From: an uncultured Bdellovibrionales bacterium
GTDB lineage: Bacteria; Bdellovibrionota_C; UBA2361; CAZKXU01
DNA length: 62,197 nucleotides
Reading direction: 5' to 3'
NCBI GenBank assembly: GCA_964556665.1
Contig: CAZKXU010000004.1
Coordinates: 1-62,197 of the forward strand
The notes under the pieces are model-generated. The model was not told the origin of the DNA. It saw nothing but the letters and a program-made list of their open reading frames with translations, and did no database searches. Positions 16,921-62,197 of the stretch are shown piece after piece. The translations under genes and the position numbers were made by a program. How positions within the stretch are numbered: position 1 is the stretch's first letter; each line of letters opens with the position of its first letter.

Positions 16921-19221
16921 CTATCTAAATGACTGTGTCTCGCCGCGCGGCTGGAACTTTAGATCACTTAGCTCTCTTGTTCCAAGCGACTCATCCTGAT
17001 GTAAATCGATCTCATCATCGACGTTAAACACTTTAGCCCCTACCAGTCCAAAGAAGGTAAATGCGTATTTAAAATAGACCTGCGTCTTAGGTGCCACAAT
17101 CTGCATGGAGAGGATATCCCCTGTGTCCTCCCTGCATGCTCCAAGATGATCCCCATCATGGTTACGTAGATGAGCATCTACTGCGCTTTCACCCACTTCT
17201 AGAGTTATCCCTATACCTGAACGGCCATTTGGATAATGACAGATTGTCACCTTCTTCTCCTCTACTACTGCTGTTGCTGTTGGAGGAACCGCTGTTGCAG
17301 TTGGTGGGATAGGGGTGTTTGTTGGTCTAGGAGTCGCTGTCGGAGGGACCGGCGTAGCAGTAGCCTCTTTGCCGCCACTCTTGCCACTTTTACCATCCTT
17401 TCCGCTTTTGCCACTATTATCATCCCCTTTCACGCTGGTACTGGTTGGAGGCGGCACGGGCGTATTCGTTGGCTTCGCAGTTGCAGTTGGTGGAATAGGG
17501 GTGTTTGTTGGTTTGGGTGTAGCTGTTGGAGGGAGCGGCGTAGCAGTAGGCGGGACTGTTGTAGGTGTCGCTGTTAGAGGTACGCATGGTCCATAATAGT
17601 CGTTCGGATGATTCGGAATATGACCACTAACCCCACTAGTAGCTATCTCAAGAGTATTCCCGAGATCTGAACTCCCTGTTCTATGACAGATTACGACCTT
17701 GGCAGCAGGCGCAAATCGCACCTTATCCGGATCGAAATACCCTAAATCCGGACTCCCATGTGGCCCTCCGCTCTTACCACTCTTGCCACTTTTCCCATCA
17801 TCTCCTCCATCCTTTCCACTCTTACCATCATCATTGCCTCCACCAGAGTTCCCACTTTTACCGCTCTTACCACTCTTCCCGCTTTTTCCACTCTTGCCAC
17901 TTTTGCCATCATCTTCCTCCCATGGCTTGCGGTAACTCCCTTCATCTCCGATAAAGGTAACGGTATTCTCACCAACAATATTTAGTAAAAACTGCCCTGG
18001 CCTCTCTCCATTGTTTACAAAATTCCCTACCGGAATCGGTCCTGCCTCAATTGTCCCGACATATACTGTTACTTTTCCGTCAGCAGGGCTCGGATTAACT
18101 ACCAACTTTGCAGTATCCTCGATCGTTAGCTTACTAAAATAGTACCCAAATGCTGTAGTCGTAAGTGTCAAAGTCTGTCCACTCTTAATTTTCACCTCTC
18201 CCCAACAACGGTTGGCAGCTGCATTTCCGGTGACAGTTAAGGTCGTGCTTGTGGATATCTCTATGTTCCCCTGATCAGATGGACAGTAAACACTCCAACT
18301 ATCAAATACAGGCAGATCAGGCACTTCGCAGCTTGAGCCGCTACAGCTCTCACCTACAGTTGGACAGCCCTGTATAAAATCATCACAAACTTTTGACTGT
18401 GCTAGTATTTTTAATCTATCCTTACTATTTACCTCGCCGTAAACTGTACTCTTTTTATCAAGAGTTAAAGAAAGATTCGATGCTGCATTACCATATGGCC
18501 GTCTGCTTTGCTGAGTGTAAGGACCTACGGCTGAGTCATAGGAATCATGTATAACATTTGAAAATGTTAGATCATCAACCCCGATCATGGCTCCCATAGA
18601 GTCATATACAAGCTCACTCATGATATAAGCTGTAAGCTGCATGCCGGTGTTAAGATCGGTCATCGCATCAACTCGAAAAACCGGATAAAAATCTGTAGTC
18701 GGAGGCTGCGCTGGAGGGTTGCCATAATCTGCTGCTGCTGTCACAGGAAGAACGTCTACTAATGTGAGGCGCACAAACCCTGGGAAATCTTGTATTTTGA
18801 AATCCGCTGCTGCATCAAATGAGGCACCAGTGCTGGTATTAGAGGTAACAGGGAATGCAGCCGTAGCAAGATCAACAGTGTCTGTAAGAATAGCAGAGTT
18901 ATTACTGTCCTTAATCTTCACCTTTGTGGGCACTGTGAACTTTGTATCGTTAGCACCCACAGAAGGGGCTGTTCTTTCGAAGTTGTTATAAAACTTAGCT
19001 GCTGAAAAGGGGGATACTAAGTTTTTTGAATTTGAGCGCAGCCAATTAAGAACCTGCGAAAGCCCGTTTTCAGAAAGATAGATTCTAGTCGCCTTTTTTT
19101 CACCGAAAAGGGACATGCGTAAATTAGAGGAGGAGAAACTTAAGGCGCTAGCGATGATCACTGAAGCTAACAAGAGAAAGATCAGGTATCCTAGAAGAGT
19201 ATTCCCGTTTTTTTTCATCAT
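16921..19221 (-). CDS. PilX/TadG-like pilus-associated protein with low-complexity insertion
   Basis: N-terminal pilin-like TM helix, last gene of a prepilin cluster, beta-rich C-terminal half, GKS repeats, PT-rich repeats, two ICH...H..H..C mini-domains. Confidence 0.65.
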   Translation of the reverse strand: MMKKNGNTLLGYLIFLLLASVIIASALSFSSSNLRMSLFGEKKATRIYLSENGLSQVLNWLRSNSKNLVSPFSAAKFYNNFERTAPSVGANDTKFTVPTKVKIKDSNNSAILTDTVDLATAAFPVTSNTSTGASFDAAADFKIQDFPGFVRLTLVDVLPVTAAADYGNPPAQPPTTDFYPVFRVDAMTDLNTGMQLTAYIMSELVYDSMGAMIGVDDLTFSNVIHDSYDSAVGPYTQQSRRPYGNAASNLSLTLDKKSTVYGEVNSKDRLKILAQSKVCDDFIQGCPTVGESCSGSSCEVPDLPVFDSWSVYCPSDQGNIEISTSTTLTVTGNAAANRCWGEVKIKSGQTLTLTTTAFGYYFSKLTIEDTAKLVVNPSPADGKVTVYVGTIEAGPIPVGNFVNNGERPGQFLLNIVGENTVTFIGDEGSYRKPWEEDDGKSGKSGKSGKSGKSGKSGNSGGGNDDGKSGKDGGDDGKSGKSGKSGGPHGSPDLGYFDPDKVRFAPAAKVVICHRTGSSDLGNTLEIATSGVSGHIPNHPNDYYGPCVPLTATPTTVPPTATPLPPTATPKPTNTPIPPTATAKPTNTPVPPPTSTSVKGDDNSGKSGKDGKSGKSGGKEATATPVPPTATPRPTNTPIPPTATAVPPTATAVVEEKKVTICHYPNGRSGIGITLEVGESAVDAHLRNHDGDHLGACREDTGDILSMQIVAPKTQVYFKYAFTFFGLVGAKVFNVDDEIDLHQDESLGTRELSDLKFQPRGETQSFR

Positions 19222-34010: not shown

Positions 34011-34733
34011 CTAATTCAGATCCTCTTTAGCTTCAATAACTAATTCCTTTATGCATGCCTCTACTGATAAAGAGAGAAGAAAACGTACTGCCTTAACAAT
34101 ATCATCTGACTTAATCATTTTTTCTCTAGGGAAAGGGGCATGTGCTGCCATATCAGTATTGATCCAGCTTGGACAGAGCGCTGTAACTTTTATCCCCAAC
34201 GGTACAAGCTCATGAAAAAGGGAATCATTCAAACCAAGTAGTCCAAACTTAGATGCGCAATATCCACCTGCACCGGCAAACCCTATCTTGCCAGCTATAG
34301 AGGAGATATTTATGATATGTCCGGATTTCTGCCTACGCATCAGAGGTGCGATAGTCTGGGTTAAATTAAATGCACCTCCTAGATTTACCGCAAGCTGTCT
34401 CTGAAAATCAGTCGCACTTAACTCTAGCGTGCCTGGAATATTAATACCGGCATTATTTACAAGCACATCGACTCTTCCAAGATCATGAAAGATCCTGGTT
34501 ACTGAATCAGCTACACTTTTTGCATCAGATACATCTAAGGGCAACACCAAAGGAGCCTGCAGTTTGTACCAAGGAGAGCTCTTTATCTCCTCTGCTAAGG
34601 CTTGTAAAGTTGACTCCGATCGAGCCATTAGGACTGTAACGTATCCATCCTGTGCAAGACTGAGGCTTATCGCTCTTCCGATCCCGCGACTTGCTCCAGT
34701 AATAATAGCAACTCTTGAAGTAGGCAGACTCAT
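34011..34733 (-). CDS. Short-chain dehydrogenase/reductase (candidate sepiapterin reductase)
   Basis: [17 protein letters not shown]; overlaps the folE stop region. Confidence 0.85.
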
Positions 34734-35311
34734 CTTCTCATCTCTCCACTCTTAACGATTGATAGAAACTCCTCGCGAGTCGGTTGGTTTGTCAGGAAAG
34801 AACCGCTCATATAATTTGTTACCATTGTGCCACTCTGCGACTGCACACCACGCATCATCATACACATATGATAAGCTTCGATCATGCAAGCCGAGCCTGC
34901 AGGTCGTACCAATTCATCAACAGCTCTGATAATTTCAAGCCCAAGACGCTCCTGTATCTGTAAGCGACGTGCAAACATATGCACTATACGTGGAATTTTA
35001 GAGAGTCCTAAAATCTTACCATCAGGGATATAGCCGATATGTGCCCGTCCAAAAAACGGCAGGAGATGATGTTCGCATAAAGAGTAAAATTCTATGTTTT
35101 TAACAACAACCATCTGTCTGTCCGGCTGTGTGAAGATTGCACCTCTTACAAGCTCATCTAGGTTTTGAGTATAGCCGACAGTAAGTTCTCGAAAAGCCTT
35201 GCTATAACGCTCAGGTGTTTTTAAAAGACCCTCACGTGACGGATCCTCTCCGATAGTCTCAAGTAGTTCTCGACAGTAACCTTGAAGCTGATCTTCTCCT
35301 GGGGAGCTCAT
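34730..35311 (-). CDS. folE: GTP cyclohydrolase I
   Basis: [34 protein letters not shown]; start placed at ATG 35311. Confidence 0.94.
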
Positions 35312-35312
35312 C

Positions 35313-35729
35313 TCATTCCTCTCGTATGGCGTAAATTTTTGGTGTTTCATGTAAAATAATCTTACTAAGTTTTACTACGGAGGAGTGCTGAGCAATCTGC
35401 GCTGCTAAGCGTTCCCAGATCTGATTAACAAGATTCTCCGTAGTTGGCATTATTCCTTTCAGCCATGCTACATCACTGTTAAGGTTTCTATGATCAAGAT
35501 CCTTTAAAATATAGCACTCAACTATCTCTCCTATTTTGGAGGTATCAATTATCATGCCGGTAATAGGATCGGGAGTGCCTGCTACTACTACTTCTAGACG
35601 GTAGTTATGCCCATGTCCGTTAGGATTAGCACACTTTCCAAAAACCGCTAGATTTTTCTCTGCATCCCACTCAGGTCGGGAGAGAGTATGGCTGGCAGAA
35701 AAATCAAAAGCCTTGCTTATTGAAACCAT
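35313..35729 (-). CDS. 6-pyruvoyl-tetrahydropterin synthase, PTPS-II type
   Basis: FSASH, C-X5-HGH ([11 protein letters not shown]), DHRNLN, PTTEN, ETP. Confidence 0.85.
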
Positions 35730-35790
35730 GCTGCAGAGGCTAGCACAAAAAGTATCGGACTCCAAGGGCATCTGCCAAGACTGGTAGGTA

Positions 35791-36870
35791 CTACACAAAC
35801 TCTAACATACGATCCATCGCCTTCTTGGCCCTATTTCTAATCAGCTCTGGCACATCAATAATAGTTTCATTATTGGTCAAGGCGCGCAGGGTATCCTCAA
35901 GTGTAATCTCATTCATATGTGGACATCTTATACTGCACATACGCACCATCTCCTTAGAGGGGTTATCGGCCATGATGTTGTCGGCCATGCTGCACTCGGT
36001 TAGTAGTAGAAAATGTGGAGCGTTGCTTTCACGCACATATTTACTCATTTGAGATGTGCTTGATGAGAAGTCTGATGCCTTTACAACCTCGGGACTACAT
36101 TCAGGGTGGGCCAGCACCAATACACCAGGAAACTGGGCACGAATATTTTTTATATCGGTTACATTAAACTTTTCATGCACCTCGCAGCGACCATGCCAGC
36201 CGATCATAGCAAAATCGGTGTTATTTGAGCTCTTACCAAGTTGTGGAAAAATTATAGTCTTGCCTGTTTCAGCCGCCACGTTGCGTGCTAAATACTCATC
36301 CGGTAGAAATATTATTTTCTCACTCTTAAGTTCACGAACAATCTTAGCTGCATTACCTGAGGTGCAGCAGATATCACATTCTGCCTTAACGTCAGCATAG
36401 GTATTAATATAGGTAACTATAGGTATGCCTGGAAATCTCTCCCTAAGCGCACGCACATCTGCTGCTGTAATACTTGAAGCTAAGGAGCAGCCTGCTACTT
36501 TAGCAGGTAGTAAAACTGTCTTCGATGGATTTAAAATCTTTGCGCTCTCTGCCATAAAGCGCACTCCGCAGAAAATGATCGGATCTTTATCTGTTTTAGC
36601 TGCTAAACGGGAGAGCTCAAGAGAATCGCCAACAACATCAGGAACAGTATGAAAAAGAGCAGGCTCCATGTAGTTATGACCAAGTATAATGGCACCACGC
36701 TCTTTTTTGCGACGATTTATCTCGAATACCAACTCAGATTTATGCTTCAATTCAAAATCAGGGATAATTGCCCCTAATTTCTGCTGCATGGCACGGTAGG
36801 TCTCCTCTATTGATGAACAGTCAATCGGCATAAGGAAAGTATAGCACTTGTCTTTGTAGAAGAGAATCAA
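35791..36870 (-). CDS. nadA: Quinolinate synthase A
   Basis: ILGHNY, FCGVRFMAE, GCSLA, CEVH, HPEC, CPHM; true start may be downstream (MPIDCSS). Confidence 0.93.
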   Translation of the reverse strand: MILFYKDKCYTFLMPIDCSSIEETYRAMQQKLGAIIPDFELKHKSELVFEINRRKKERGAIILGHNYMEPALFHTVPDVVGDSLELSRLAAKTDKDPIIFCGVRFMAESAKILNPSKTVLLPAKVAGCSLASSITAADVRALRERFPGIPIVTYINTYADVKAECDICCTSGNAAKIVRELKSEKIIFLPDEYLARNVAAETGKTIIFPQLGKSSNNTDFAMIGWHGRCEVHEKFNVTDIKNIRAQFPGVLVLAHPECSPEVVKASDFSSSTSQMSKYVRESNAPHFLLLTECSMADNIMADNPSKEMVRMCSIRCPHMNEITLEDTLRALTNNETIIDVPELIRNRAKKAMDRMLEFV

Positions 36871-36917
36871 TTAAGGGGTAAAAACTAAGACTAGTTGATT
36901 TGGATATATTTGCACGC

Positions 36918-38711
36918 TCACCGAAATAGTATAGACAAAAAAGAGGGGTAGGATGGACGTACTCCCAGCAGATTAACCACACTAGCGATCTCCTCTCTTA
37001 GCCTACAAAACTCCTTATCATCAGCCCTAGTTTGGCCATATAAATATAGCTGCAGCTGATCAATGGCGGTGACAAGCGAAAATTTAAGCGCCTCGTCCGT
37101 CACCTTTTCATGTATCGCGGATCGTGCTGCTCCGACAGAGAGATCCTCCTTAAGATCAAAATTACTTCTCAATATCTCTAAAAATTGTGTATTAAGTTCG
37201 CTGAAGTCCCGTGCCTGCTTTAGGCGTTTAAGAATTTTGAGACGAGCCTGCTTCGCTCTCAATATTATAAATAATACGAGAGAGAACACTAAGGCTATTA
37301 GCAGCGTAAGAACGCCCAGCAACATTACAGAGAAGGAAAACTCTGGAAAATAGCCAGAGGCAGCCACGATAGACTCTCTGATAGGTTCATCATATTCGGG
37401 TATGGCTACGCTGCTTGCTTCAATTTTGCGTGGAATAGGGGTTGGTTCTACAGGGGCGCCTTCCACAGTAAATGATATCGGCGCGCTAGAAGAGGTTTTA
37501 TAACTCTTACTTTCTGTATCAAAATATGGAAGTTCTACTGCTGGAATATTAATCTGATTACCATGCAATGGAATCAGGGAGAGTTTAAACCTCTTATAGA
37601 AAAGAAGCCTTCCATTTCGCTCCGTGATCTCAACTGCAGGACTCTCCTCATAAACTTTAATCTGAGATGAGTCTATTTTTAATGGAATTTTCGTTAATGG
37701 GTTAATATTTCCGAAACTTGAGATCGTAAATTCTAATGTTTTACCTTCCCCATATTTTATCGGCTTGGAATCATAGTTTAGTTTAATATCAGTTGCTCCA
37801 ACTATCGGGGAACTTAGCCCCCATTCATCAATCTCATACAGTGGAGTGGGGGGTGTAAGCACTTTAAGAAGTAATGCACTCGATCGCACATTCAGCTCCT
37901 TTGCAGGGCTTGGAAAGAAGTCATTAAAGATGCCTAACCCAAACGGGTCTCCAGCTCCTCTCCTCCGATTGGAGGGACGATCATCTTGAACTTTAGCTTT
38001 TGCCGCACGCTCAGCCAACTCAAGATTTCCAGCTCTTAGCGGGAAAAGGGCTGTCTTAATCGATGTAACATTGTAGGCTTCGCCTGAGATAATACGTGAA
38101 TTTTTTCTCTGTCGCTCAAACTCTTTATACCAAAATCCATCATATTTTGCTTCATCTAACTCAGCCCCTATAACTTTAAAATTAGAGATAAATTCCACCG
38201 TGTTAACAACCTGCTCCCCCAGATAGGCTTCTGCCTTATCAAGGTGCTGCTCAAGCATTACCGAGTTGTCTGGTGCTGTAGCTGCATTTTTAGAGACAGA
38301 GAGTTTTAGCGCATTTGCTACATACTTCCTCCCATCATAGATCACTGCAGCACCTGGAGTAAGAAGCTCTCCTTCTCTCTTTGCGGTAAGGATAAAATGA
38401 TGAATAACACTCTGCCTCATCTCTCCATTTTCAATTTCGACTCTTGTTTCAGGGCCGCTGTAGGAATAATCAAAATCCTGTCCGGCAGTTAGCTCTGGCA
38501 CTGGAGCTTTTGTCGTACCCTCGATTACTACACCTAGATTGAACCTATCTTCAATAGTTCCGGAGCGTGGTTTAATCTCTAAATAAAAGTTATCAATCTC
38601 CTCGCAAAAAGATGGGGCCACTGGCAAAAGAAATAGGCAAAAAAAGAATACTAGAGAGAATAGAAGATAAGAGCGTAAAGTGATCAACATAGTAAATGAG
38701 TTCAGTAACAT
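36918..38711 (-). CDS. batD: BatD-family protein
   Basis: Signal peptide, repeated beta-rich domains, YLGEQ, LFPLRAG, C-terminal TM helix; position in a Bat operon. Confidence 0.75.
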   Translation of the reverse strand: MLLNSFTMLITLRSYLLFSLVFFFCLFLLPVAPSFCEEIDNFYLEIKPRSGTIEDRFNLGVVIEGTTKAPVPELTAGQDFDYSYSGPETRVEIENGEMRQSVIHHFILTAKREGELLTPGAAVIYDGRKYVANALKLSVSKNAATAPDNSVMLEQHLDKAEAYLGEQVVNTVEFISNFKVIGAELDEAKYDGFWYKEFERQRKNSRIISGEAYNVTSIKTALFPLRAGNLELAERAAKAKVQDDRPSNRRRGAGDPFGLGIFNDFFPSPAKELNVRSSALLLKVLTPPTPLYEIDEWGLSSPIVGATDIKLNYDSKPIKYGEGKTLEFTISSFGNINPLTKIPLKIDSSQIKVYEESPAVEITERNGRLLFYKRFKLSLIPLHGNQINIPAVELPYFDTESKSYKTSSSAPISFTVEGAPVEPTPIPRKIEASSVAIPEYDEPIRESIVAASGYFPEFSFSVMLLGVLTLLIALVFSLVLFIILRAKQARLKILKRLKQARDFSELNTQFLEILRSNFDLKEDLSVGAARSAIHEKVTDEALKFSLVTAIDQLQLYLYGQTRADDKEFCRLREEIASVVNLLGVRPSYPSFLSILFR

Positions 38712-38747
38712 AATCGCAGATCTGCTAAAAATACAAAAGCAGCAGAG

Positions 38748-40502
38748 CTACCAAATCTGTTCGGCATCGCGGTTCTGTGTCCTCCTCTTCTTGTATAGCA
38801 ATACTGGAGCATCAGAGAGTGAATCAATCCATGCTTTTGCTTGATTTTGGGAGAGTGGTTCTGCATCGCTCGCTTCTCCTGCTCCAGATTTTTTTTCGAC
38901 CTCCTGATCGGATTCTTGGTTTGGCTGCTTAGAACTATTCTCTTCACTATTGGACTCCTGATCTGAGGACTCATCCTCAGAGCTCTCAGAGTCATCGGAG
39001 TTTGAGCTCTCTTTATTTTGCTCCTTATCACTTTGCGACTGTTGATCTTGACTCTGATTCTGATTCTGTTTCTGCTGCTGCTCCTGCTGTTCTTTTTTTT
39101 CTTGCTGCTCTTGCAATTTCTTTCTTGCTAATTCCAGATTATGCTTTGCTCGCTCATCTTGAGGAAACAACCTTAATGCCTCCTCATAATTTGTAATAGC
39201 TGAATCAAACTTATCCATCTTGAACTGAGAGTTTCCTAAGTTATAAAGGGTATTAAAGCGCTCTTCATAAGTGAGTGGAGATTTTAATGCTGTAGTGTAC
39301 TGCTTCGAGGCATCTTCATAACGGTTAAGTTTATAAGCAGAGCTTCCCAAGGCCTGATTTATTTTAGGATCTTGAGATCTCTTCTCTCCTGCTTCAAAAC
39401 CCTTATACGCTGTTTCAAAATCACCGGCATTGTAGGCCTTAGATGCTTGGTAAAGATTTGGTACCTCTTCTGCCTGTAACTGGGTGGCACAAGAGAATAA
39501 AACAGCACTAAAAATAATACCTGGCACCTTAAATACCACAGCCACTACTATAGTTATAAGCGCAATTAAAACTAGATAAGATCCGTATTCATTAAACACC
39601 TGGTATTTTTTCTCGGCTCGCCCAGAGACAGTATCTAATAATGCATTGCTAAGATCCCCTTCATCAGCAAGCAAGGCAAGCAGATCCTGGTCACCAAGTG
39701 TAGCACGCGTATAAATACCCGTTCCAGCAGTCGCAATCTCTTGCAGTATATCCTCCTTTAATTTACTAATCACAATATTTCCAAAGCGGTCTTTTACGAA
39801 TACAGAAGGAGCGATCTCAATCGGTCGTCCCTCAACTGTTCCAAATCCGATGCTAGAAATAGTTGCCCCTAATTCTTTAGCTTCAGCCATTGATTCCTGC
39901 AAAGAGCTTTGTGGCTCCTCTCCATCACTTAGCACAATAATTGTAGCATTTTTCGAATTAACCTCTTTAAGACTTTTCACTGCTTCTATAATTGCACTAC
40001 TGAGCGCAGAGCCAGGCTCTGTAATCAGCTCAGGAGAGATGGCGTTGGTAAAAACATGTAAAATCGAGTAATCCGAGGTAAGAGGGCAGTATAGGTAGGC
40101 TGCACCGGCAAACAGTACAATCCCTATACGATCCCCGCGCGAACGTTTGGAGAGTAGCTCGACTAAGTCGTAAATCTTTCTCTTAGCAAGTTCCAGTCGG
40201 GAAGGGGGAGTATCTGAAGCGAGCATGCTGTAGCTAATATCAACTGCCAAGATATAATCCCGCCCATATTCAGAGACAGATATCTCCTTTTTGCCAAAAT
40301 ATGGTCGGAGCAGTGCAATGCCAAGCAGAGTTAAGATTAGCAGATAAAGTATTAAGCGCATGCGCTTACTGCTGTTTCTTAATCTAAAAGCAGATAAAGC
40401 CATCTCCAATCTGCCTTCCAGGCGGAATAAGATAAAGAGCAATGGCACAAGTACAAGCAGAATGTAGGCACCAGAGCTATTTAAAAAACCAAAATCATTC
40501 AT
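38748..40502 (-). CDS. vWA + TPR protein (BatB/BatC fusion)
   Basis: DISYSM MIDAS, PSRLELAK, CPLTSDY, SDGE, TPR YNLGNSQF, Gln/Ser/Glu-rich tail. Confidence 0.82.
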   Translation of the reverse strand: MNDFGFLNSSGAYILLVLVPLLFILFRLEGRLEMALSAFRLRNSSKRMRLILYLLILTLLGIALLRPYFGKKEISVSEYGRDYILAVDISYSMLASDTPPSRLELAKRKIYDLVELLSKRSRGDRIGIVLFAGAAYLYCPLTSDYSILHVFTNAISPELITEPGSALSSAIIEAVKSLKEVNSKNATIIVLSDGEEPQSSLQESMAEAKELGATISSIGFGTVEGRPIEIAPSVFVKDRFGNIVISKLKEDILQEIATAGTGIYTRATLGDQDLLALLADEGDLSNALLDTVSGRAEKKYQVFNEYGSYLVLIALITIVVAVVFKVPGIIFSAVLFSCATQLQAEEVPNLYQASKAYNAGDFETAYKGFEAGEKRSQDPKINQALGSSAYKLNRYEDASKQYTTALKSPLTYEERFNTLYNLGNSQFKMDKFDSAITNYEEALRLFPQDERAKHNLELARKKLQEQQEKKEQQEQQQKQNQNQSQDQQSQSDKEQNKESSNSDDSESSEDESSDQESNSEENSSKQPNQESDQEVEKKSGAGEASDAEPLSQNQAKAWIDSLSDAPVLLYKKRRTQNRDAEQIW

Positions 40503-40508
40503 AGTAAT

Positions 40509-41492
40509 CTATGGAACCTTAAGAAAATACGTGCGCGTCAAAAAGACAAAAAGCAGATAACAGGCAGAGCCCCAGGCGGCAAATTTAAAAAATAGTTCCT
40601 CTGCGATTTTTTTCTCAGGCTCTTTTCCCTCCTGACGTTCTAACTTGTCTATCTCCTCGTAAACCTCCTTTAATTTAGATAGGGTGCCTGCATTGTAAAA
40701 TACTCCTCCTGTAAGTTTTGCAATCTCTTTTAGCATAGGCTCGTCATATTCGACCTGTTGTCGATACTGTTGACCAAAAAAACCGGGGAATGTTTGCACG
40801 ACCGGTTTGCTTGAACCTATACCAATAGTGTGGATTTTTATGCCTAGCTCGGATGCCACCTTGGCGGCCTGAAGCGGATTCACCTCACCAGCATTGTTTG
40901 AGCCATCAGTTAATAGGATTATGGCCTTTGAACTCCCTGCTAAGGGCTCAAGCCTCTTTAGGCTCACTCCTAAGCCATCACCAATTGCAGTACCATCCCC
41001 AGCCATCCCATCCTTAAGCCGATCTATAAACTCCCCCAAAAGCCCATGATCAAGTGTTAACGGGCTTTGTAGATATGCTTTTCCCCCAAATACGACTAAA
41101 CCTATCCTGTCTCCGGAACGTGCTGCTACGAATTCCCTAACAACTGCCTTAACTGCATCAATGCGCCGCAGATTAGCGTTGCTCTCCCCAACATCAGCAC
41201 TGGACATACTTGGAGAGACATCTATTGTAAGCATAATATTTCTGCTGAGTGCAGGTTCATTAAGTACAGTGATATTCTGCGGCCTTGCGGCTGCTATTGA
41301 GAGTAGGATCAAAGAGGCGATACTAAGACTCCAAAGTACAGGAACCCTAAGAAGCAGCCTTAAGGTTGGCTTGATCTGCGAGATACCGTATATAGATGGA
41401 TATGAGATGGCCTGACAATCACGACTACGCAATAGATAAAGCAGGATCGTTAATGGTGGGAGTGCTAATAGGTAAGGATAGGCAAAGGTCAT
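40509..41492 (-). CDS. batA: vWA domain protein BatA
   Basis: AAARPQ, DVSPSM, DRIGLVVFG, SPLTLDH, TAIGDG, LLTDG, IHTIGIG. Confidence 0.85.
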   Translation of the reverse strand: MTFAYPYLLALPPLTILLYLLRSRDCQAISYPSIYGISQIKPTLRLLLRVPVLWSLSIASLILLSIAAARPQNITVLNEPALSRNIMLTIDVSPSMSSADVGESNANLRRIDAVKAVVREFVAARSGDRIGLVVFGGKAYLQSPLTLDHGLLGEFIDRLKDGMAGDGTAIGDGLGVSLKRLEPLAGSSKAIILLTDGSNNAGEVNPLQAAKVASELGIKIHTIGIGSSKPVVQTFPGFFGQQYRQQVEYDEPMLKEIAKLTGGVFYNAGTLSKLKEVYEEIDKLERQEGKEPEKKIAEELFFKFAAWGSACYLLFVFLTRTYFLKVP

Positions 41493-41947
41493 CTTAAAGC
41501 TGTACAGAAATTAGATAATAAGTCTTGTAAATTTCTTATCCGTTCTGAGGGTACAGATTCCTCGCTCGGAGTATACTTTAAATTATCAAGATCGGCCATT
41601 AAGTTAGCTAATGACTCATGCTCATTATTAAGTGAGAGCAGTATCCGCCGAGCTTCGTCCGGTGCCATCTCTGCAAATGGCATATTAAGCTTACTGCCGA
41701 GCAGTCGCTTTACTAGGAGCATGATACGGGCAAGCTCTGTTTTTGTAATATGCTCTTTTGCTGTCACAACTTTAAGCTCGGTCATAACAAGATCAACGGG
41801 ATCAAGAGCTGCAGATCTTCTTCTTTTCCCTATATTAATCACTAGAAGCAGCGCCGCGATGGCAACAGCGAGTAGAACTAACCATTCAGTCATTCCTACT
41901 TCATATGGAAACTCCGGGATCGAAGTTATGTCGTATATATCTTCCAT
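41489..41947 (-). CDS. Small membrane protein of the Bat operon (DUF4381-like)
   Basis: DIYDI start, one TM helix, LKY near C-terminus; overlaps batA. Confidence 0.6.
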   Translation of the reverse strand: MEDIYDITSIPEFPYEVGMTEWLVLLAVAIAALLLVINIGKRRRSAALDPVDLVMTELKVVTAKEHITKTELARIMLLVKRLLGSKLNMPFAEMAPDEARRILLSLNNEHESLANLMADLDNLKYTPSEESVPSERIRNLQDLLSNFCTALR

Positions 41948-48218: not shown

Positions 48219-50003
48219 CTATTTTGTTGATTCTTTACCCTTGGCTCTTGCTAATCTACGTTTGACTATACGTGGCTGACGGGTTGGGCGAACGTCAACC
48301 GGGTCAAACCTATGAACGTAGGAACCACCAACTTCTTTAATCACTGTCAATAACAACTCTTTGCGGCTCTTAATTTTTGGATGGGACTTCTTACAGCCAA
48401 AGGCGCACTCAATGGCACCAGCCATGCCTCTAGTTTGATAGCGAGTGGCACCGTTTAAAGCATATCGATCTAACCCTTCCTCAAGCAGATCACTATAATT
48501 AGGGTTAGCCTCTAGCCAAATTTTTACATCAGATTCTTTAACCCTCCATGTCAACTGCTCTCCTCGCCAAGTCTGCTGGCCTATACCCAAACTAGATATC
48601 CAAAATGCTGTGGCGTTACGTAATAGACGTGCCCCTCTTACCCCTTCCCACTTTCCATCATACTTTATCTCCCATGGCAAAATTTGGTTCTCTCTGTAAC
48701 CAAACATCTGTGGGTATACCCGGGCTAAAGCAGTTACAGCTGTCATTCCGGTCATACGCAAGCAATCTTCCGCAACTTCATCAAAACTATTTTTCCAACC
48801 ATTAAATTTTGCTGCACAGCGTGGAACGATAGGGCGGCCTGGACCATAGTATAATTCAGGGTGAGTAGATCTGAGATGTGTATCCACTAGATAACCCGTT
48901 ACCTGATCTAATAGCCGTAAACCAGAGCGCCCTAACCACATATACTCCTGACGAATATCCCACGGCTTTAACTGCTGTCTCTCAACTCCGACTAGAAACT
49001 TATTGCCTAAGGCTTCCGCTCCTAGTGCAAGTGCATGTAGCGTACCACGCACCTTTGAGCTACTAGTAACTGAATGACCAATGTGCTCATTTCTAAGCAC
49101 CTGCGGCCAATTCTGTTCTCTAATTTTACCAACGTCTAAAGTGGAATTTACACGGTCATATGCCTGAAGACTAAATTCAATAATCCAGCCCATTACCCTC
49201 CCTACCCGAGCTAAACCTCGATTACCCTTCCATTTACCCTGCATCTTGAATTTCCATTCACGTATTACAGGATCAACACCTTCTACCAATTTACCAAAGG
49301 CGCCTCTAAGCAACGTAGGAAAAGACTCCTCACTTAAAACTCGCGATAGTCCAAGTTGATAAAAGCTACCTTTAACAGACTTAATCTGTTCTATCTGATC
49401 TGCTGTTTGAAATTTAGCAACATCTACAAGTCCATGCCTTACCAATGCACTAATACGTCTTCGCCCAGCTTTTGTTTTATAGGTTATGAGACCACCTGGA
49501 TACGCATCTATAAATCCCTCTGGATTAGAGGGAGTTCGTACACATTTAAAGGCAACTATAGCTACTAATTCATTAGTTAATTTCGTAATCTCAGTGCCGC
49601 TTTTCATAAATTCGAGAGTATCTACAAAGCACTGGAAAGAGCACTCCCTGCATCCTGGCTGCATAACTTTAGGAGAACCAGCCGACCCTTCTGCCTTTAC
49701 TGCTGAATCTAATCCGGAACCAGTTAGATACGCCCTGAGTTTCTCAACTAAAATATCTGCTTTTGAAAGAACTTCTGCATGGATTCCTTCAATCCTTACT
49801 CTAGCTCTGTCAATCGTACAACTTCTATTAAAGACCTGCCCAGCAGGCGCAGGATCCCCTGATTCGGTCAATAAATCATAATTAAATCTTACAGTAGAGA
49901 GGGGGGGTATCTCCGCCGTCGAAGGAGCTACTTGGAATGATCGTTCCAACGGTATGGGCGGCCGTACAACAGATTCTCTACTTACTACTGGCTGATGAGG
50001 CAC
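48219..50003 (-). CDS. Repeat protein, possibly DUF4046-like (PW[E/D]..W.G..G repeats)
   Basis: Three ~97-aa spaced motifs: REWKFKMQGKWKGNRG, KPWDIRQEYMWLGRSG, LPWEIKYDGKWEGVRG. Confidence 0.6.
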   Translation of the reverse strand: MPHQPVVSRESVVRPPIPLERSFQVAPSTAEIPPLSTVRFNYDLLTESGDPAPAGQVFNRSCTIDRARVRIEGIHAEVLSKADILVEKLRAYLTGSGLDSAVKAEGSAGSPKVMQPGCRECSFQCFVDTLEFMKSGTEITKLTNELVAIVAFKCVRTPSNPEGFIDAYPGGLITYKTKAGRRRISALVRHGLVDVAKFQTADQIEQIKSVKGSFYQLGLSRVLSEESFPTLLRGAFGKLVEGVDPVIREWKFKMQGKWKGNRGLARVGRVMGWIIEFSLQAYDRVNSTLDVGKIREQNWPQVLRNEHIGHSVTSSSKVRGTLHALALGAEALGNKFLVGVERQQLKPWDIRQEYMWLGRSGLRLLDQVTGYLVDTHLRSTHPELYYGPGRPIVPRCAAKFNGWKNSFDEVAEDCLRMTGMTAVTALARVYPQMFGYRENQILPWEIKYDGKWEGVRGARLLRNATAFWISSLGIGQQTWRGEQLTWRVKESDVKIWLEANPNYSDLLEEGLDRYALNGATRYQTRGMAGAIECAFGCKKSHPKIKSRKELLLTVIKEVGGSYVHRFDPVDVRPTRQPRIVKRRLARAKGKESTK

Positions 50004-56097: not shown

Positions 56098-56481
56098 CTA
56101 CGCTGCAGCTCTTACTTTGGATGCCCAGATCTGTCGCATGCGGATTGTAGTGCCGGCATAACTTTTTTCTACATTATCTACGATCTTGGCTAAGGTAAGC
56201 ATCTGCTGCTCATTTAACTTTGAGGGATCAGGGAGAATTGATAAAAAGGTAGAGACAATATCTTTCTCGGAGACTAGATACTTAGCTGCCTTTGAAAAAT
56301 CACGTGAAAGAGAAACGATATCAAAGATTACATTATTTTTTACAGCTTGATCTAACTTATGTGCTAGCTCTCTTATGATATAATGCACTAAATCTGGGTA
56401 GACCTCTCCTGGATAGTGCGCGATGCCGTAGCACCACCCTTCCATTTCAATCTCAAAGATCTCTTTATTCTCGTTTTTCAT
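56098..56481 (-). CDS. Hypothetical protein (127 aa)
   Basis: Start overlaps upstream stop (TAATG). Confidence 0.65.
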   Translation of the reverse strand: MKNENKEIFEIEMEGWCYGIAHYPGEVYPDLVHYIIRELAHKLDQAVKNNVIFDIVSLSRDFSKAAKYLVSEKDIVSTFLSILPDPSKLNEQQMLTLAKIVDNVEKSYAGTTIRMRQIWASKVRAAA

Positions 56482-56678
56482 TACTCCTGACCTCTTAGAC
56501 CAAGAACATCTTTAACACGAGCTGCCGCTATAACACCGATAGTTCCTGCCGCCAGTGCACATTTTGCTGCAGCCATTAGTCTAGCTGGCTCTAATTGATG
56601 TAAGGATTGAGCGGCTGAAGGGGCCGCACCACTCTGCACAACTAAATCTTCCCCCGATGTACGTTCTGCCTTTCCCAT
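56481..56678 (-). CDS. Small hypothetical protein (65 aa)
   Basis: TAATG coupling with the next gene; hydrophobic Ala-rich C-terminal half. Confidence 0.5.
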   Translation of the reverse strand: MGKAERTSGEDLVVQSGAAPSAAQSLHQLEPARLMAAAKCALAAGTIGVIAAARVKDVLGLRGQE

Positions 56679-57732: not shown

Positions 57733-58743
57733 TTACCTCTCAAGCGGCCAGCGTGCACGCGCAATTAAATCTCCGTCACCGCGCTCACCTGCTTGCCATC
57801 TTAGCGCTGCTGCATATCCTATCATTGCAGCATTATCCACACAGTGCGCCATCGTGGGGAAAAACACAGCTGCCCCTGGAAGCGCCTTTAACCTGGCACG
57901 TAAAGAGAGATTCGCTGAGACTCCTCCACTGACCGCAACCTTTTTTACGCCGGTGCTAGCAATAGCTTTTGACAACTTAAACTGAAGAGCGTCCACAATC
58001 GCCTCCTGCACGGCGTATGCTATCTCACCTCTAAGTGACGGATTTGCTGATATCTCCCCTTTGTTTTTAGAGATTAGAAGCGCTATCGCTGTTTTTAATC
58101 CGGAGAAGCTAAATCCATCTGAATCCCGCATTACTTTAGGGAGAGAAAATCTGCTCTTAGCGGTACTGTCAGCAAGTGCCGCAAGCTTAGCACCGCCTGG
58201 ATAGGTAAAGCCAAGAAGATTTGCAGATTTATCAAAAGCCTCTCCGGCAGCATCATCTTTAGTTCGAGCGATTAATTCATAACTACCGATCTCTTTTACA
58301 AGCTGAATCTCCGTATGTCCGCCCGATACAACTAGCGCCAAAAATGGCGGCTGCAGCTCCTTATTATCCAACATACATGAGAAAATATGCCCTTCGATAT
58401 GGTTTATACCAAGCACCGGGAGATTATAAGCAAGTGCTAATCCTTTTACAAAATTTGTTCCCATTAACAAGCAGCCTTTAAGGCCAGGACCGCAGGTAAC
58501 CGCAAGCGCGGTAAGATCCTTTAACTGTATTTTCCCCTGATTTAATACTGAATCTGTAATCAACGGAAGATTTTTAAGGTGCTCCCGTGCCGCAAGCTCC
58601 GGCACTATACCGCCGTAAGCTTCATGGAGCTTTACCTGTGAGGAGATCTCCTCGGCCAGCACTGTAATCTCCCCCGCTTTAATACTGAGGAGCGCTGCCG
58701 CTGACTCATCACAGCTACTTTCGACCGCTAATAGTGTGACCAT
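57733..58743 (-). CDS. tsaD: tRNA N6-threonylcarbamoyltransferase subunit
   Basis: ESSCDES, PELAAREH, GPGL, HIEGH, SGGHT, DDAAGEAFDK, DNAAMI. Confidence 0.95.
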   Translation of the reverse strand: MVTLLAVESSCDESAAALLSIKAGEITVLAEEISSQVKLHEAYGGIVPELAAREHLKNLPLITDSVLNQGKIQLKDLTALAVTCGPGLKGCLLMGTNFVKGLALAYNLPVLGINHIEGHIFSCMLDNKELQPPFLALVVSGGHTEIQLVKEIGSYELIARTKDDAAGEAFDKSANLLGFTYPGGAKLAALADSTAKSRFSLPKVMRDSDGFSFSGLKTAIALLISKNKGEISANPSLRGEIAYAVQEAIVDALQFKLSKAIASTGVKKVAVSGGVSANLSLRARLKALPGAAVFFPTMAHCVDNAAMIGYAAALRWQAGERGDGDLIARARWPLER

Positions 58744-58772
58744 TTAATTTTTCTTCGGTAAGAATGACACCT

Positions 58773-58807
58773 ACTGGGACCGCGGGCTTCCAGCCCGCCG
58801 TCCCAGT
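58773..58807. repeat. Collapsed REP doublet (single hairpin)
   Basis: ACTGGGACCGCGGGCTTCCAGCCCGC followed directly by CGTCCCAGT. Confidence 0.85.
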
Positions 58808-58850
58808 TAACAGAACTCAGTTTACAGTGTAGTATTAGAGACATTAAGTC

Positions 58851-59711
58851 CTATGGAGTTAGACTCTTAAGATATTTTGCCATCGCAGTGAGATCTCCTT
58901 CTGCAGCTCGCTTATAGAACTCTACCGGACAGAAATGTGGGTCTACTGTAACCTGGTTAGGTGTAACTCCTGTCTTAAGATAGTTAAGAATATCATTCTC
59001 TGTCCAGGATGCGCCGCGAAGATAGTCAGCAAAATTTAGAGCCGGCGCAACCTTCTCTCCGGAATCCCGCCGTATAGCACGTCCTCCGCCTAGATACTTC
59101 TCCGATCCAAAAATGGCTGTGGAGGAGTTGTGGCAGCTGCCGCAACGCGCCACATGATCGACAAGATACTTGCCATGTTCAAGGGTCTCTTTTTCCGATA
59201 CTCTCGCGATAAAGCCGCGCACCTCACGGCGTTTATCAAACAGACCGGTTGTATTTTTAGAGACAAAGCCGACTTCCCTTTTTTCGACAGCATTTGAAAC
59301 CGCAGGTAGGGTACGTAAATATGAAATAATTGAGAGAACATCCTCATCGGCCATCCATTGAAATCCATCATGTGCTTGAGGCGAGATTAGATCATCGTTA
59401 CGATCGATCCCGGCGCGAATCACCCGCACAAGCTCCTTAACAGTATATTCATTTAAACCGCTTCTATCAGGGGTAATATTAGCTGCATGCACTCCACCGA
59501 ACTTATCATAAAAAAGCGCTCCTCCACTAAGCGGTGCATCTGGATAGGCGCTCTCCCCGTGACAGAATCCGCAGGCCGCCATACTTTTGGCAAGATACCG
59601 TCCGCGCGCTACCTGCTCCCCACTAGTTAGATCTAGATTTAGGTCAGTATTCCTTGAGAAACACCCAAGCACTGCCACCACAAGCACCACCATTAATATT
59701 TTTATCTTCAT
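58851..59711 (-). CDS. Diheme cytochrome c lipoprotein
   Basis: Lipobox VLGC; two CxxCH motifs (CGFCH, CGSCH); NITPD. Confidence 0.87.
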   Translation of the reverse strand: MKIKILMVVLVVAVLGCFSRNTDLNLDLTSGEQVARGRYLAKSMAACGFCHGESAYPDAPLSGGALFYDKFGGVHAANITPDRSGLNEYTVKELVRVIRAGIDRNDDLISPQAHDGFQWMADEDVLSIISYLRTLPAVSNAVEKREVGFVSKNTTGLFDKRREVRGFIARVSEKETLEHGKYLVDHVARCGSCHNSSTAIFGSEKYLGGGRAIRRDSGEKVAPALNFADYLRGASWTENDILNYLKTGVTPNQVTVDPHFCPVEFYKRAAEGDLTAMAKYLKSLTP

Positions 59712-59970
59712 AACTGTCTGATATTCCTAAGAATTAATGCATTAGTTATACCGAGTTCTTACATGAATGACAACCGTTCAAAAAATTGAATAGAGGTAGG
59801 TTATGTCATACAATACAAGATCTGTTCTTTTTCATTATTCTTAATACGGGTAGACATTCGACTGCTCCAGTGCTACGCGGGTTCTAGTACAGAATCCGGG
59901 AGGCAACTGGAGAGTCATCTTCATAGGTTTGACTGCTCCGGTTTTGCAAATTCTAAGAAATTCACAACCA

Positions 59971-59996
59971 GAAGCTGCTCCGTATGGAGCAGCTTC
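59971..59996. other. Perfect hairpin at the low-GC/high-GC junction
   Basis: 11-bp stem GAAGCTGCTCC-GTAT-GGAGCAGCTTC. Confidence 0.6.
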
Positions 59997-60016
59997 GCAA
60001 GAAAAAGGAAAAGATC

Positions 60017-62197
60017 GTGAACAAGGGCTACCTGTCATTCCTGCTTGCTCTCGTCACTCTCTTCGTCGCCACGGCTTGCAACCGCGGCGGCGGGGGTGGC
60101 CACAAGCGGGCAGAGCAGAAGTACGACTCGACCGTGGTTTCGTTGAACGCGATCACGATCACGACACCGATCGTGAAGTGGATCAGTGTCGGGTACAACA
60201 ACGGTGATACCGACACAGTTTACGGGTTCAGCGGTCTCGCCTCCACCGAGGAGGTGGGGATGAGATTCGTATTCGAAGACGGCCGGGAATCGTTGGAGTA
60301 CACGCTCCCGGTAGTTAACGGGGGCTGGAACAAGCTCGATGCTCGCTTCCCGGTCGGCATCATGACTGAGGTTCAGGTCTTCAAGACCGATGAGCCGGGC
60401 CTGGTCCTGGATCGGCGATACGTGATCTCCGACAACCGGCTGGCAGGGGACCCGTGGTTCCAGCTCAGCCGGAGCCATGTGGTCGCTGGAGTTGCCACTC
60501 AGATCGTGGCGACCCTGCGCATGCCGCTCGATCCGGATGTTGGTACGGTCGGTATCTCTCTCGAGGAGACGAAGGGTGAGCCGGGCGCGCAAATGAGCGT
60601 CCGCACCACCGACTTCACGAGAGATGCAGGTGATCCAACTGGAGTCACCTACTCTGCACGATTCTTCCTCCTTGAGAGCCCGAATGGAACTTCGGGTGAA
60701 GGAGAGACGGATCCGCAGGTGGTCACATACCGCTTGCGTGTGTTGCTCGACGGGGTGGCGCTCCCGCTACTCCCTCCGGAGTACGTTCGCGTCATCGAGC
60801 CATTCACGAAAGCGTTCGGGAACGACCTCGATCTGCTCATGAGGTCTGCTGTGCAGATCTACGAGAACTCGAACAAGTACGGCGGCTTCGGCCCTCTGCA
60901 TGAGCAGGGGATCTCTGAAGCTGCACAGGAATTGGCCTCGTCAGGCCGCATTGACAAGGTCTACCGCGGCCCAGACGGCAACACCATCTGCTTCCTTGCA
61001 AGCGAGAAGGGAAATCTCGCAAAGGGAGCTCTCTTGCTCTATCCGCGTGCTTCAAAGGGCGGAGGAGCACCTCCAACAAATCTCCTTTCTCCATTCGAAA
61101 ATCCCGGTCTCGGGATCGATACGGAGAAAGTCCGGGCCGAGTTGGACGCTCTTGAAGTTGGATCTTTCTTCAATGAAAACGTCCAGATCTTGACTGGCGA
61201 GGAGGTCACGTTCGGAAGCGTCGGGAACGATGCTCCTTTCGTGTACATCTCTACGCACGGGGAGGTGCTCTCGTTTGGAGACGCGTACGAAACCTCCGTT
61301 GTCGAGACGGGGGAACGCGTCTCCTATGACTACTTCCCATACAACGGGGAGCTCCAGACCGGAGAGGCGATCCTGCTATGCCGGGCCTGGGACCATGAGA
61401 ACTCGGGACCGGTTGTCCGCTACGGCTTCACGGAGAGGTACGCCGTGCGGCAGAACTATTCCGACTCGATCGTATTCGTGGCGAGTTGCCGTTCCGTGGC
61501 AAACGCCAAGCTCCCGCTGGCCTTCTGGCAGGCGGGCGCACGGGCGGTGATCGGATACTTGGACTACGTCGACATCGCGGATGCCAACGTGTACGAGGAG
61601 ACAGTGGTCTCCCAATTGGCGTTCGGATTAAGCGTCGAACAGGCAACTGCTGGCCTTCCCCTCCGCTATCATGGAGACAGGAATGCCACGCTGCCTCTCG
61701 GCGTTGTCGGAGGCGGATTTGAAAGCGCCTCTGAGCGGGGGCGCTGGGGGACGGGCACAGACCTGTCAACTAGCGTGTTCGTCACAAGTGCATTCGGAGG
61801 AGCTCTTCTTCCGGATGGGCCGGGCAACACCTATTTCGCCCTGCTCACTGCGTTGAACGGCGTCCCGCCGATCACTGAGGGTCAGCTCTCCCAAGAGCCC
61901 ATCCAGATCACGGCGGGAGCTAAGCTCGAGTGTCGGGTGGACTTCATCGTCAAGCACCCGAATCCGGATCCGAACGCGCTACTTGAGATCTGGTTCGATG
62001 CCAACAACGGCAACACCTACCTGCTCTACGTGCGGGCGGTGTATCAGATCTCAGGATTCAAGTTCCTCACGAGCGGATTCGATCACACCGGGTGGCAGAC
62101 GCTCGGCCCGTACGACATCGAAATCGGCACACCGCTCCTCGGTCTAACGGGCAAGATCAGGTTCAGGGTCACCTCACCTGACCTTCACGCCGCTGTG
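60017..62197 (+). CDS. Lipoprotein with clan CD (caspase/CHAT/gingipain-like) peptidase domain; partial, runs off the window end
   Basis: Manual translation: GTG 60017 after AAGGA, 727 codons with no stop; MNKGYLSFLLALVTLFVATA-C lipobox; VYISTHG (His414), VFVASCRS (Cys491), LPLAFWQAGARAVIGY. Confidence 0.8.
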   Translation, partial: MNKGYLSFLLALVTLFVATACNRGGGGGHKRAEQKYDSTVVSLNAITITTPIVKWISVGYNNGDTDTVYGFSGLASTEEVGMRFVFEDGRESLEYTLPVVNGGWNKLDARFPVGIMTEVQVFKTDEPGLVLDRRYVISDNRLAGDPWFQLSRSHVVAGVATQIVATLRMPLDPDVGTVGISLEETKGEPGAQMSVRTTDFTRDAGDPTGVTYSARFFLLESPNGTSGEGETDPQVVTYRLRVLLDGVALPLLPPEYVRVIEPFTKAFGNDLDLLMRSAVQIYENSNKYGGFGPLHEQGISEAAQELASSGRIDKVYRGPDGNTICFLASEKGNLAKGALLLYPRASKGGGAPPTNLLSPFENPGLGIDTEKVRAELDALEVGSFFNENVQILTGEEVTFGSVGNDAPFVYISTHGEVLSFGDAYETSVVETGERVSYDYFPYNGELQTGEAILLCRAWDHENSGPVVRYGFTERYAVRQNYSDSIVFVASCRSVANAKLPLAFWQAGARAVIGYLDYVDIADANVYEETVVSQLAFGLSVEQATAGLPLRYHGDRNATLPLGVVGGGFESASERGRWGTGTDLSTSVFVTSAFGGALLPDGPGNTYFALLTALNGVPPITEGQLSQEPIQITAGAKLECRVDFIVKHPNPDPNALLEIWFDANNGNTYLLYVRAVYQISGFKFLTSGFDHTGWQTLGPYDIEIGTPLLGLTGKIRFRVTSPDLHAAV

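Follow-up and report, generated by a model that had tools for sequence, protein, structure and literature searches.

An unlisted gene for a predicted lipoprotein at the contig end

The stretch of DNA analysed here (the window, 62,197 nucleotides; contig CAZKXU010000004.1 of assembly GCA_964556665.1) comes from an uncultured Bdellovibrionales bacterium in a freshwater metagenome sample, and it ends inside a gene for a predicted lipoprotein that probably carries a cysteine peptidase domain of the caspase/CHAT (clan CD) superfamily. On the + strand, 727 codons run from GTG 60017 to the window end at 62197 with zero stops, and the remaining five frames over the same interval contain 11–32 stops each. 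In shuffled sequences with the same bases (n = 2000), the longest open run had a mean of 110 codons and a maximum of 312, versus the 727 observed. The GC content at the three codon positions (0.61/0.45/0.73) is typical of true coding DNA, and 60017–62197 is a real gene with a strong coding signal. It is absent from the list of open reading frames (ORFs) of the window because that list omits ORFs that run off an end. An earlier inspection of the letters, hereafter the sequence-only reading, had proposed this frame and had taken the many short ORFs listed in the same interval for its shadows. Both proposals hold up, as the listed ORFs, for instance 60035–60592 (−), are shadow frames in GC-rich coding DNA.

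Where does the gene begin and end? The frame is open upstream as far as TAA 59954 and offers a second in-frame start, ATG 59984, which is where the ENA gene call on an independent contig (L092, coordinates mapped) begins. An AAGGA lies 8 nt upstream of GTG 60017, and Shine-Dalgarno sites are found at only 10 of the 40 window genes versus a background of 18%. The choice between GTG 60017 and ATG 59984 is ambiguous because the host rarely uses such sites. At the other end, the C-termini of homologues lie 8–11 residues past the end of the window, which makes the gene nearly complete and puts the cut about 8–11 codons before the expected stop; when an extension was sought, no contig was found to continue beyond 62197. 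The size of 727 or more amino acids given in the sequence-only reading stands for the frame, with the additions that ATG 59984 is an alternative start and that only this short C-terminal remainder is missing.

Domain layout, relatives and the invariant His–Cys pair

To describe the protein we used an AlphaFold2 model built on a 40-sequence alignment of relatives (predicted local distance difference test score, pLDDT, 72 overall and 72–92 in the core; predicted template modelling score 0.67), as the single-sequence model, with a pLDDT of only 31.6, was useless. Residues 1–21 (60017–60079, +) form a predicted signal peptide, helical at 3–19 in the model, that ends in a lipobox (...LFVATA before C21). 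The stretch ALVTLFVATAC agrees from either start with the PROSITE PS51257-type lipoprotein rule ([LIVMFWSTAG](2)-[LIVMFYSTAGCQ]-[AGS]-C after six uncharged residues, with the Cys at 15–35 and a Lys or Arg in the first 7), a Lys or Arg being present within the first 7 residues and the same Cys being residue 21 from GTG 60017 and residue 32 from ATG 59984. Cys21, named already in the sequence-only reading, is therefore given here as the predicted lipidation site of a predicted lipid-anchored protein; where that reading called the protein surface-anchored, the prediction here is of a lipid anchor in a membrane. It is followed by a Gly-rich disordered tether (NRGGGGGHKR..., residues 22–44, 60080–60148, +; pLDDT < 50 for 21–44). 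The combination of lipobox and Gly-rich linker is found in homologues, and a GGGG linker also follows the lipobox Cys in the relatives P0002, P0003 and P0008.

Beyond the tether lie tandem Ig/FN3-like beta-sandwiches (residues ~45–260, 60149–60796, +), modelled as strands over 46–260 with a pLDDT mostly of 70–89. Foldseek matches spanning ~210–260 columns relate them, at a probability of 1.0, to pairs of FN3 or of Ig domains and to complement MG domains, and relatives match Glucodextran_B, Big_7, Big_13 and choice_anch_X in the same N-terminal beta region. Two long helices (residues 265–285 and 293–307, 60809–60937, +; pLDDT 83–96), which already fall within the alignment to the hidden Markov model (HMM) of the family, link this stalk to the catalytic domain.

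The CHAT-like (clan CD) alpha/beta catalytic domain spans residues ~312–553 (60950–61675, +) according to Pfam CHAT, the family HMM and the model. Its proposed general base is His414 (STHGE; codon 61256–61258, +) and its proposed nucleophile Cys491 (ASCRS; codon 61487–61489, +). In the model, strand 408–412 leads to H414 and is followed by two hairpins and a helix and then by helix 469–479, after which strand 485–489 leads to C491, followed by helix 498–505, strand 510–514, helix 520–535 and strand 549–553. The His strand is separated from the Cys strand by a 70-residue insertion (415–484), and the two strands end two residues ahead of H414 and C491, respectively. The caspase-hemoglobinase fold, an alpha/beta/alpha sandwich that places the dyad side by side on neighbouring strands, is expected to show strands that end just before the His and the Cys and alternate with helices, and the modelled order of secondary structure fits such a fold.

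A flexible linker (562–585) connects the catalytic domain to a C-terminal beta-sandwich of the jelly-roll type (residues ~587–727, 61775–62197, +; model strands 587–719), which is cut at the window end. The corresponding domains of relatives weakly match CBM_4_9, MAM and Laminin_G_3 in Pfam, the top BFVD match for this domain is a 'Concanavalin A-like lectin/glucanase', and a weak PDB profile match is to the carbohydrate-binding module (CBM) of 2xom. Among the NCBIfam models, choice-of-anchor L and J match the jelly-roll of relatives and a choice-of-anchor X motif appears in their second N-terminal domain; for choice-of-anchor L (NF038133), 6 of 10 relatives score 18.5–25.1 bits, below the curated cutoff of 27. 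When PDB and BFVD were searched by Foldseek with the full-length model, every match was of the FN3, Ig, complement MG or ConA-like kind, the lists being filled by beta-sandwich domains. These matches bear out the stalk of Ig-like domains and the C-terminal jelly-roll, and with them the beta-rich N- and C-terminal regions that the sequence-only reading had described. Domains of the Ig, CBM and choice-of-anchor types are typical of exported surface proteins. The only cysteines in the window protein are C21, C325, C455, C491 and C639.

By direct search, the window protein is nearly an orphan. A word-indexed search of 5.8 billion clusters with the protein as query gave 0 matches, and an exhaustive phmmer search of 1.84 billion representatives gave six, of which five are true relatives (P0002–P0006, E 2e-7 to 9e-4); word-indexed searches with 6-sequence and 82-sequence profiles gave P0008 as the sole true relative. 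Rejected as relatives were P0001, a spurious repeat protein, and both P0007 (an M10 metalloprotease) and P0009, in which the similarity lies only in the common beta-domains. The true relatives share one layout (lipobox, Gly-rich linker, Ig-like domains, helical segment, catalytic core and C-terminal beta domain) and the family core motif [ST]HG[DE] ... G[AST]CRS ... GAxAxxG[YFW]. Scans with the back-translated core motif brought up about 88 relatives, from 47 loci in metagenomes and 42 in species-representative genomes; the genome loci come overwhelmingly from uncultured Myxococcales/Myxococcota metagenome-assembled genomes, a few being from Planctomycetota (Brocadia included) and others. With none of its relatives does the window protein share more than 25–34% identity. 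A family HMM built without it nevertheless recovers it over residues 238–575, with a score of 83.6 bits and an E of 1.2e-18 when scaled to 1.84 billion sequences, so that by profile, domain order and core motif it belongs to this unnamed family of lipoprotein CHAT-like proteins (P0002–P0006, L003–L091). Exact look-ups showed that every source names the members 'hypothetical protein', and no NCBIfam model covers the catalytic domain in the window protein or in the relatives scanned. As far as these searches reach, the family is rare, unnamed and centred on uncultured Myxococcota, with no curated model that names it. The term 'unfamiliar subtype' used in the sequence-only reading is a fair one.

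Conservation of the two proposed catalytic residues among homologues is one of the tests on which, by the sequence-only reading, the peptidase proposal could fail, and the proposal withstands it. In the HMM alignment, position 414 is His in 89 of 89 sequences and position 491 is Cys in 95 of 95, and in an independent MAFFT alignment of 82 sequences with a mean identity of ~20%, no column other than those of H414 and C491 is invariant. The residue at 490 is A, S, T or G in all 95 sequences, G415 is present in 78 of 89, and V486, G507, A508 and G513 are nearly invariant in the HMM alignment. The window copy retains the His-Gly, the Ser-Cys-Arg-Ser and the GA...G block (G507, A508, G513), and the segments FVYISTHG, IVFVASCRS and LPLAFWQAGARAVIGY, singled out in the sequence-only reading, are all present where it placed them. 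The clan CD motif consists of a His-Gly and of a Cys preceded by a small residue, typically Ala, each after a hydrophobic strand (PMC12445089). The window protein shows these features: the His comes before the Cys and both are conserved, Gly follows the His, a small residue precedes the Cys, and hydrophobic stretches (VYIST-HG and IVFVAS-C) lie ahead of His414 and Cys491. The 77-residue His–Cys spacing, regarded as unusually long in the sequence-only reading, lies at the short end of the family range of 65–125 residues. In DdvA, a periplasmic CHAT protein of Myxococcus xanthus, the spacing is 45 residues (PMC11506125).

Which superfamily does this catalytic domain belong to? The sole Pfam match of the window protein is CHAT (PF12770), at 15.2 bits for the full length and 16.1 bits when trimmed, both below the curated gathering cutoff of 24; it aligns residues 376–543 with profile positions 108–258, the matched stretch being ~17 residues longer than that of the profile (168 residues versus 151 positions). 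When the 82 members were scanned against Pfam one by one, CHAT was by far the commonest match (14 members), with L023 (27.0 bits) and L015 (25.1 bits) above the cutoff and L021 (22.1) and L011 (21.0) near it, and all these matches fall on the same catalytic half of the profile (about 107–271 of 289). The other enzyme families matched by relatives are Peptidase_C25 (12–13.2 bits, cutoff 23) and, once, Peptidase_C14 (13.1 bits, cutoff 21.4), neither of which has any Pfam match to the window protein itself. A tblastn search against plasmids for annotated CHAT proteins gave chance matches only. The clan CD assignment made in the sequence-only reading is thus supported in part: clan CD families are the only enzyme families seen, with CHAT matched by the window protein and its cutoff exceeded by two relatives, but the window protein stays under that cutoff and has no C25 or C14 match. 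By the criterion of Pfam, the window protein is not a CHAT member, and its putative link to CHAT and clan CD runs through the family, which makes for a sound transitive inference because family membership is firm.

Among the relatives are short proteins of 258–357 amino acids that consist only of an N-terminal transmembrane or signal anchor and the catalytic domain (L030, L031, L033–L035, L038, L045–L047, L049). Their best weak Pfam match is Peptidase_C25, not CHAT, which suggests that the family bridges CHAT-like and gingipain-like sequence space.

Foreign composition and surroundings of the gene

At the start of the lipoprotein gene, GC rises from ~0.45 to 0.59, a jump overlooked in the sequence-only reading. 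The GC of the gene is 0.595 versus 0.453 for the 40 other window genes (z = 6.3), and its GC at third codon positions (GC3) is 0.726 versus 0.403 ± 0.040 (maximum 0.499; z = 8.0). At 73 other family loci, gene and flanks are nearly equal in GC (the median difference is −0.007 and the largest +0.067), and the family median GC is 0.64. Because the GC3 is foreign to the host while other family genes match their flanks, the window copy is best read, from its composition, as a recent horizontal acquisition by a bacterium of ~45% GC, probably from a high-GC lineage. The junction is spanned by separately assembled Logan contigs from three runs (59238–60602, 59700–60259 and 59409–60081), at a depth of ~3–5x that is equal on either side and with no loose ends, and in the 2-kb ENA contig L092 the first 215 codons of the lipoprotein gene are connected with a divergent cytochrome c gene. 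As four assemblies span it, the join is real, and a chimeric assembly was considered and rejected.

A perfect hairpin with an 11-bp stem and a 4-nt loop (GAAGCTGCTCC-GTAT-GGAGCAGCTTC; 59971–59996, +), seen in the sequence and in the RNA fold, lies in the 5′ leader at the point where the rise in GC sets in, 20 nt upstream of GTG 60017. The fold of 59955–60035 has a minimum free energy of −25.6 kcal/mol (z = −3.3), and none of 200 shuffles was equally stable; the alternative ATG 59984 lies within the loop and 3′ arm. The hairpin could be a leader or regulatory structure, or else the remnant of an insertion boundary. No mobile-element gene is visible near the GC step, as the contig ends inside the gene.

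The genes upstream are ordinary housekeeping genes (ileS, fadB-like, thioesterase, ksgA, tsaD and cytochrome c). The close relative P0012 is a stand-alone gene, and the DAGK-like, FHA, TIG and GH3 neighbours that recur around some members reflect synteny inside one Myxococcales clade. Nothing in the window or in the neighbourhoods of relatives points to a defence island, to a sigma factor paired with an anti-sigma factor, or to a system for secretion or sorting.

Elsewhere in the window, Logan depth reaches 13–36x, versus a background of ~4x, at 58218–58391 and 58740–58913, with loose ends at 58229/58263 and 58769/58806, so that short stretches in tsaD and near the spacer between tsaD and cytochrome c are shared with more abundant organisms. 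Three large ORFs have no Pfam family at E ≤ 1e-5 (7656–11840, +, 1394 aa; 16921–19221, −, 766 aa; 24806–26413, +, 535 aa), and a fourth (48219–50003, −, 594 aa) has none at E ≤ 1e-3. The abutting small ORFs 56098–56481 (−) and 56481–56678 (−), the first with a weak CorA match (21 bits, below the cutoff), may represent a corA-like transporter gene that is split or degenerate. At 34011–41947 (−) and 21699–24399 (−) lies a Bat-type cluster (BatD, VWA and VWA+TPR proteins), which, together with the scarcity of Shine-Dalgarno sites and the AT-rich leaders of window genes, would by itself hint at a Bacteroidota-like host.

Interpretation and comparison with known systems

What could such a protein do? 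We consider it likely that the gene encodes a cysteine endopeptidase that belongs to the caspase/CHAT (clan CD) superfamily, is exported and is held by a lipid anchor, its nucleophile being Cys491 and its general base His414. For its mode of action we infer lipidation, catalysis, a role for the insertion at 415–484 and ligand binding. Signal peptidase II would cleave the signal peptide and Cys21 would be acylated, which would tether the protein to a membrane through the flexible Gly-rich linker, with the two Ig/FN3-like domains and the helical pair acting as a stalk. The alpha/beta domain would then cleave peptide bonds by means of the dyad, with the 70-residue insertion between the two strands probably shaping or gating the substrate cleft, while the C-terminal jelly-roll (choice-of-anchor-L/CBM-like) may bind the target, be it glycan or protein.

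Several observations weigh against this interpretation. The CHAT score of the window protein itself does not reach the curated cutoff, searches of the PDB by sequence (one) and by profile (three) found no related chain, and in the full-length fold searches the catalytic domain was superposed on no structure of clan CD. The window protein has no match among the NCBIfam models, choice-of-anchor L included, and it lacks the C-terminal cysteine pairs of most relatives (Q..C.P ... E.CGS ... LC), a divergence of its targeting domain, which may owe its stability to something else. None of the neighbours around family members is conserved family-wide, which leaves no partner gene or substrate clue. 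Moreover, a thiol nucleophile would need protection in an oxidising extracytoplasmic compartment.

A more ambitious and clearly more tentative proposal is that the window protein and its ~90 relatives make up a new clan CD family, deserving a MEROPS family of its own. Its members would be exported, lipid- or transmembrane-anchored CHAT-like enzymes with a large His–Cys insertion and a choice-of-anchor-L-like targeting domain, mobile between phyla, and with an extracytoplasmic role that might lie, for example, in predation or nutrient proteolysis, or else be that of a new envelope sorting transpeptidase.

The same fold and dyad might serve transpeptidation instead of hydrolysis, the protein being a surface 'sortase-like' enzyme that cleaves a sorting signal from its cargo and attaches the cargo to an acceptor at the cell surface. 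Clan CD does include transpeptidases, as PorU of the type IX secretion system (T9SS) and the GPI8/legumain ligases work in this way, the predicted lipid anchor would place the enzyme beside the envelope, its accessory domains resemble the 'choice-of-anchor' domains typical of sorted surface proteins, and the dyad is invariant. However, sorting-system or cargo genes are not conserved beside family members, the similarity to PorU/C25 does not rise above noise (12–13 bits), and ligases cannot be told from hydrolases at the sequence level. We regard this alternative as unlikely. Still less probable, in our judgement, is that the protein is an adhesin or binding protein of the surface without catalysis, its caspase-like domain serving as a scaffold (a pseudo-enzyme) and its Ig-like and jelly-roll domains carrying the function. 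Beta-sandwich of the binding type does make up most of the protein, the window copy has diverged strongly (no relative is more than 34% identical to it), and the extracytoplasmic CHAT domain of DdvA can have an incomplete, resting active site (PMC11506125). Yet H414 and C491 are the sole invariant residues, and the window copy keeps the His-Gly, the small residue followed by Cys-Arg-Ser, and G507, A508 and G513; with the dyad and core motifs so conserved, a scaffold role is not expected.

Could the protein act in the cytoplasm after all, as an effector of defence or cell death in the manner of other CHAT proteases (Craspase Csx29, or gasdermin- or CBASS-activating enzymes), its signal peptide being an artefact of the start site? 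The characterised bacterial CHAT proteases are mostly associated with defence and the gene was probably acquired horizontally, but both starts yield the lipobox, which many relatives have too, TPR, NTPase and sensor domains are absent, no CRISPR, CBASS or gasdermin neighbours occur in the window or around relatives, and the accessory domains are of extracellular types, all of which makes this very improbable. Just as little credence goes to an artefact, whether a chimeric assembly of a high-GC gene with a low-GC genome or a non-functional remnant: a GC step of 0.14 exactly at the gene start, at a contig end and with a low coverage of ~3–5x, would suit such an origin, but the three Logan contigs and the ENA contig cross the junction at equal depth without loose ends, and the 727-codon frame is intact with all family-conserved residues kept.

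If the endopeptidase interpretation is right, an exported, lipid-anchored CHAT-like family with binding domains would place members of the caspase superfamily on the surface of bacteria in a lineage other than that of the gingipains. To our knowledge, the bacterial CHAT/caspase-like proteases characterised so far almost all act in the cytoplasm as effectors of defence or cell death, with DdvA, a signalling anti-sigma factor, as the single studied extracytoplasmic example. The family would give a name and a testable function to ~90 'hypothetical proteins' that are concentrated in predatory or social Myxococcota. The window copy appears to be a clear case of cross-phylum transfer of such a gene. 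That word-indexed searches with so divergent a protein miss every relative is also a caution for automated annotation.

The window protein resembles the CHAT proteases (PF12770, with Csx29/TPR-CHAT of the type III-E Craspase, HetF and separase-type modules) in its dyad of a His and then a Cys after hydrophobic strands, in the His-Gly and in the block ...AF..AGA..hhG[YFW]..V.. after the Cys, and CHAT is the only family that members of its own family reach at or above a Pfam curated cutoff. In contrast to these proteases, the N-terminal ~105 positions of the CHAT profile remain unmatched in the family, and the window protein has no TPR repeats, is predicted to be exported and lipid-anchored instead of cytoplasmic, stands outside any defence-system context, and is fused to Ig-like and jelly-roll domains, with a His–Cys spacing that differs as well (77 residues, within the family range given above). 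Predicted export with lipid anchoring, the lack of TPR repeats, the long insertion between the two strands and the fusion to Ig-like and choice-of-anchor-like domains set it apart from every CHAT protein characterised. Its relatives' jelly-roll and second N-terminal beta domain match choice-of-anchor L, J and X (NF038133, NF038128 and NF041940) at E 1e-5 to 1e-3, although all these matches lie below the curated cutoffs (best 25.1 versus 27) and the window protein has lost the conserved cysteines of that domain.

Gingipains and PorU (MEROPS C25, Bacteroidota) are likewise envelope-associated clan CD peptidases in which the catalytic domain is followed by one or more beta-sandwich domains, and the weak Peptidase_C25 match of the short family members falls in the region after the catalytic Cys. 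These C25 scores of 12–13 bits are, however, far below 23, and the window protein has neither the T9SS C-terminal domain, with only ~10 C-terminal residues missing, nor a recognisable N-terminal prodomain; its predicted N-terminal lipidation also differs from anchoring by anionic lipopolysaccharide (A-LPS).

DdvA is a periplasmic TPR-CHAT protein tethered to the membrane by a flexible linker and endowed with a canonical His–Cys dyad; this anti-sigma factor crosses the membrane once, has a zinc-binding domain in the cytoplasm and a TPR scaffold, and is paired with the gene of a sigma factor of the extracytoplasmic function (ECF) type (PMC11506125). It shares with the window family an extracytoplasmic CHAT-type module on a flexible tether, and it occurs in the phylum on which that family is centred, the Myxococcota. 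In contrast, the window family uses a lipobox or a simple transmembrane anchor and lacks both TPR repeats and a sigma-factor neighbour. By analogy, the periplasmic TPR-CHAT protein DdvA and the cell-surface gingipains seem the nearest functional counterparts of the window protein, which would then represent no new mechanism but a rare family, mobile across phyla, that appears to extend CHAT-type proteases to the cell envelope.

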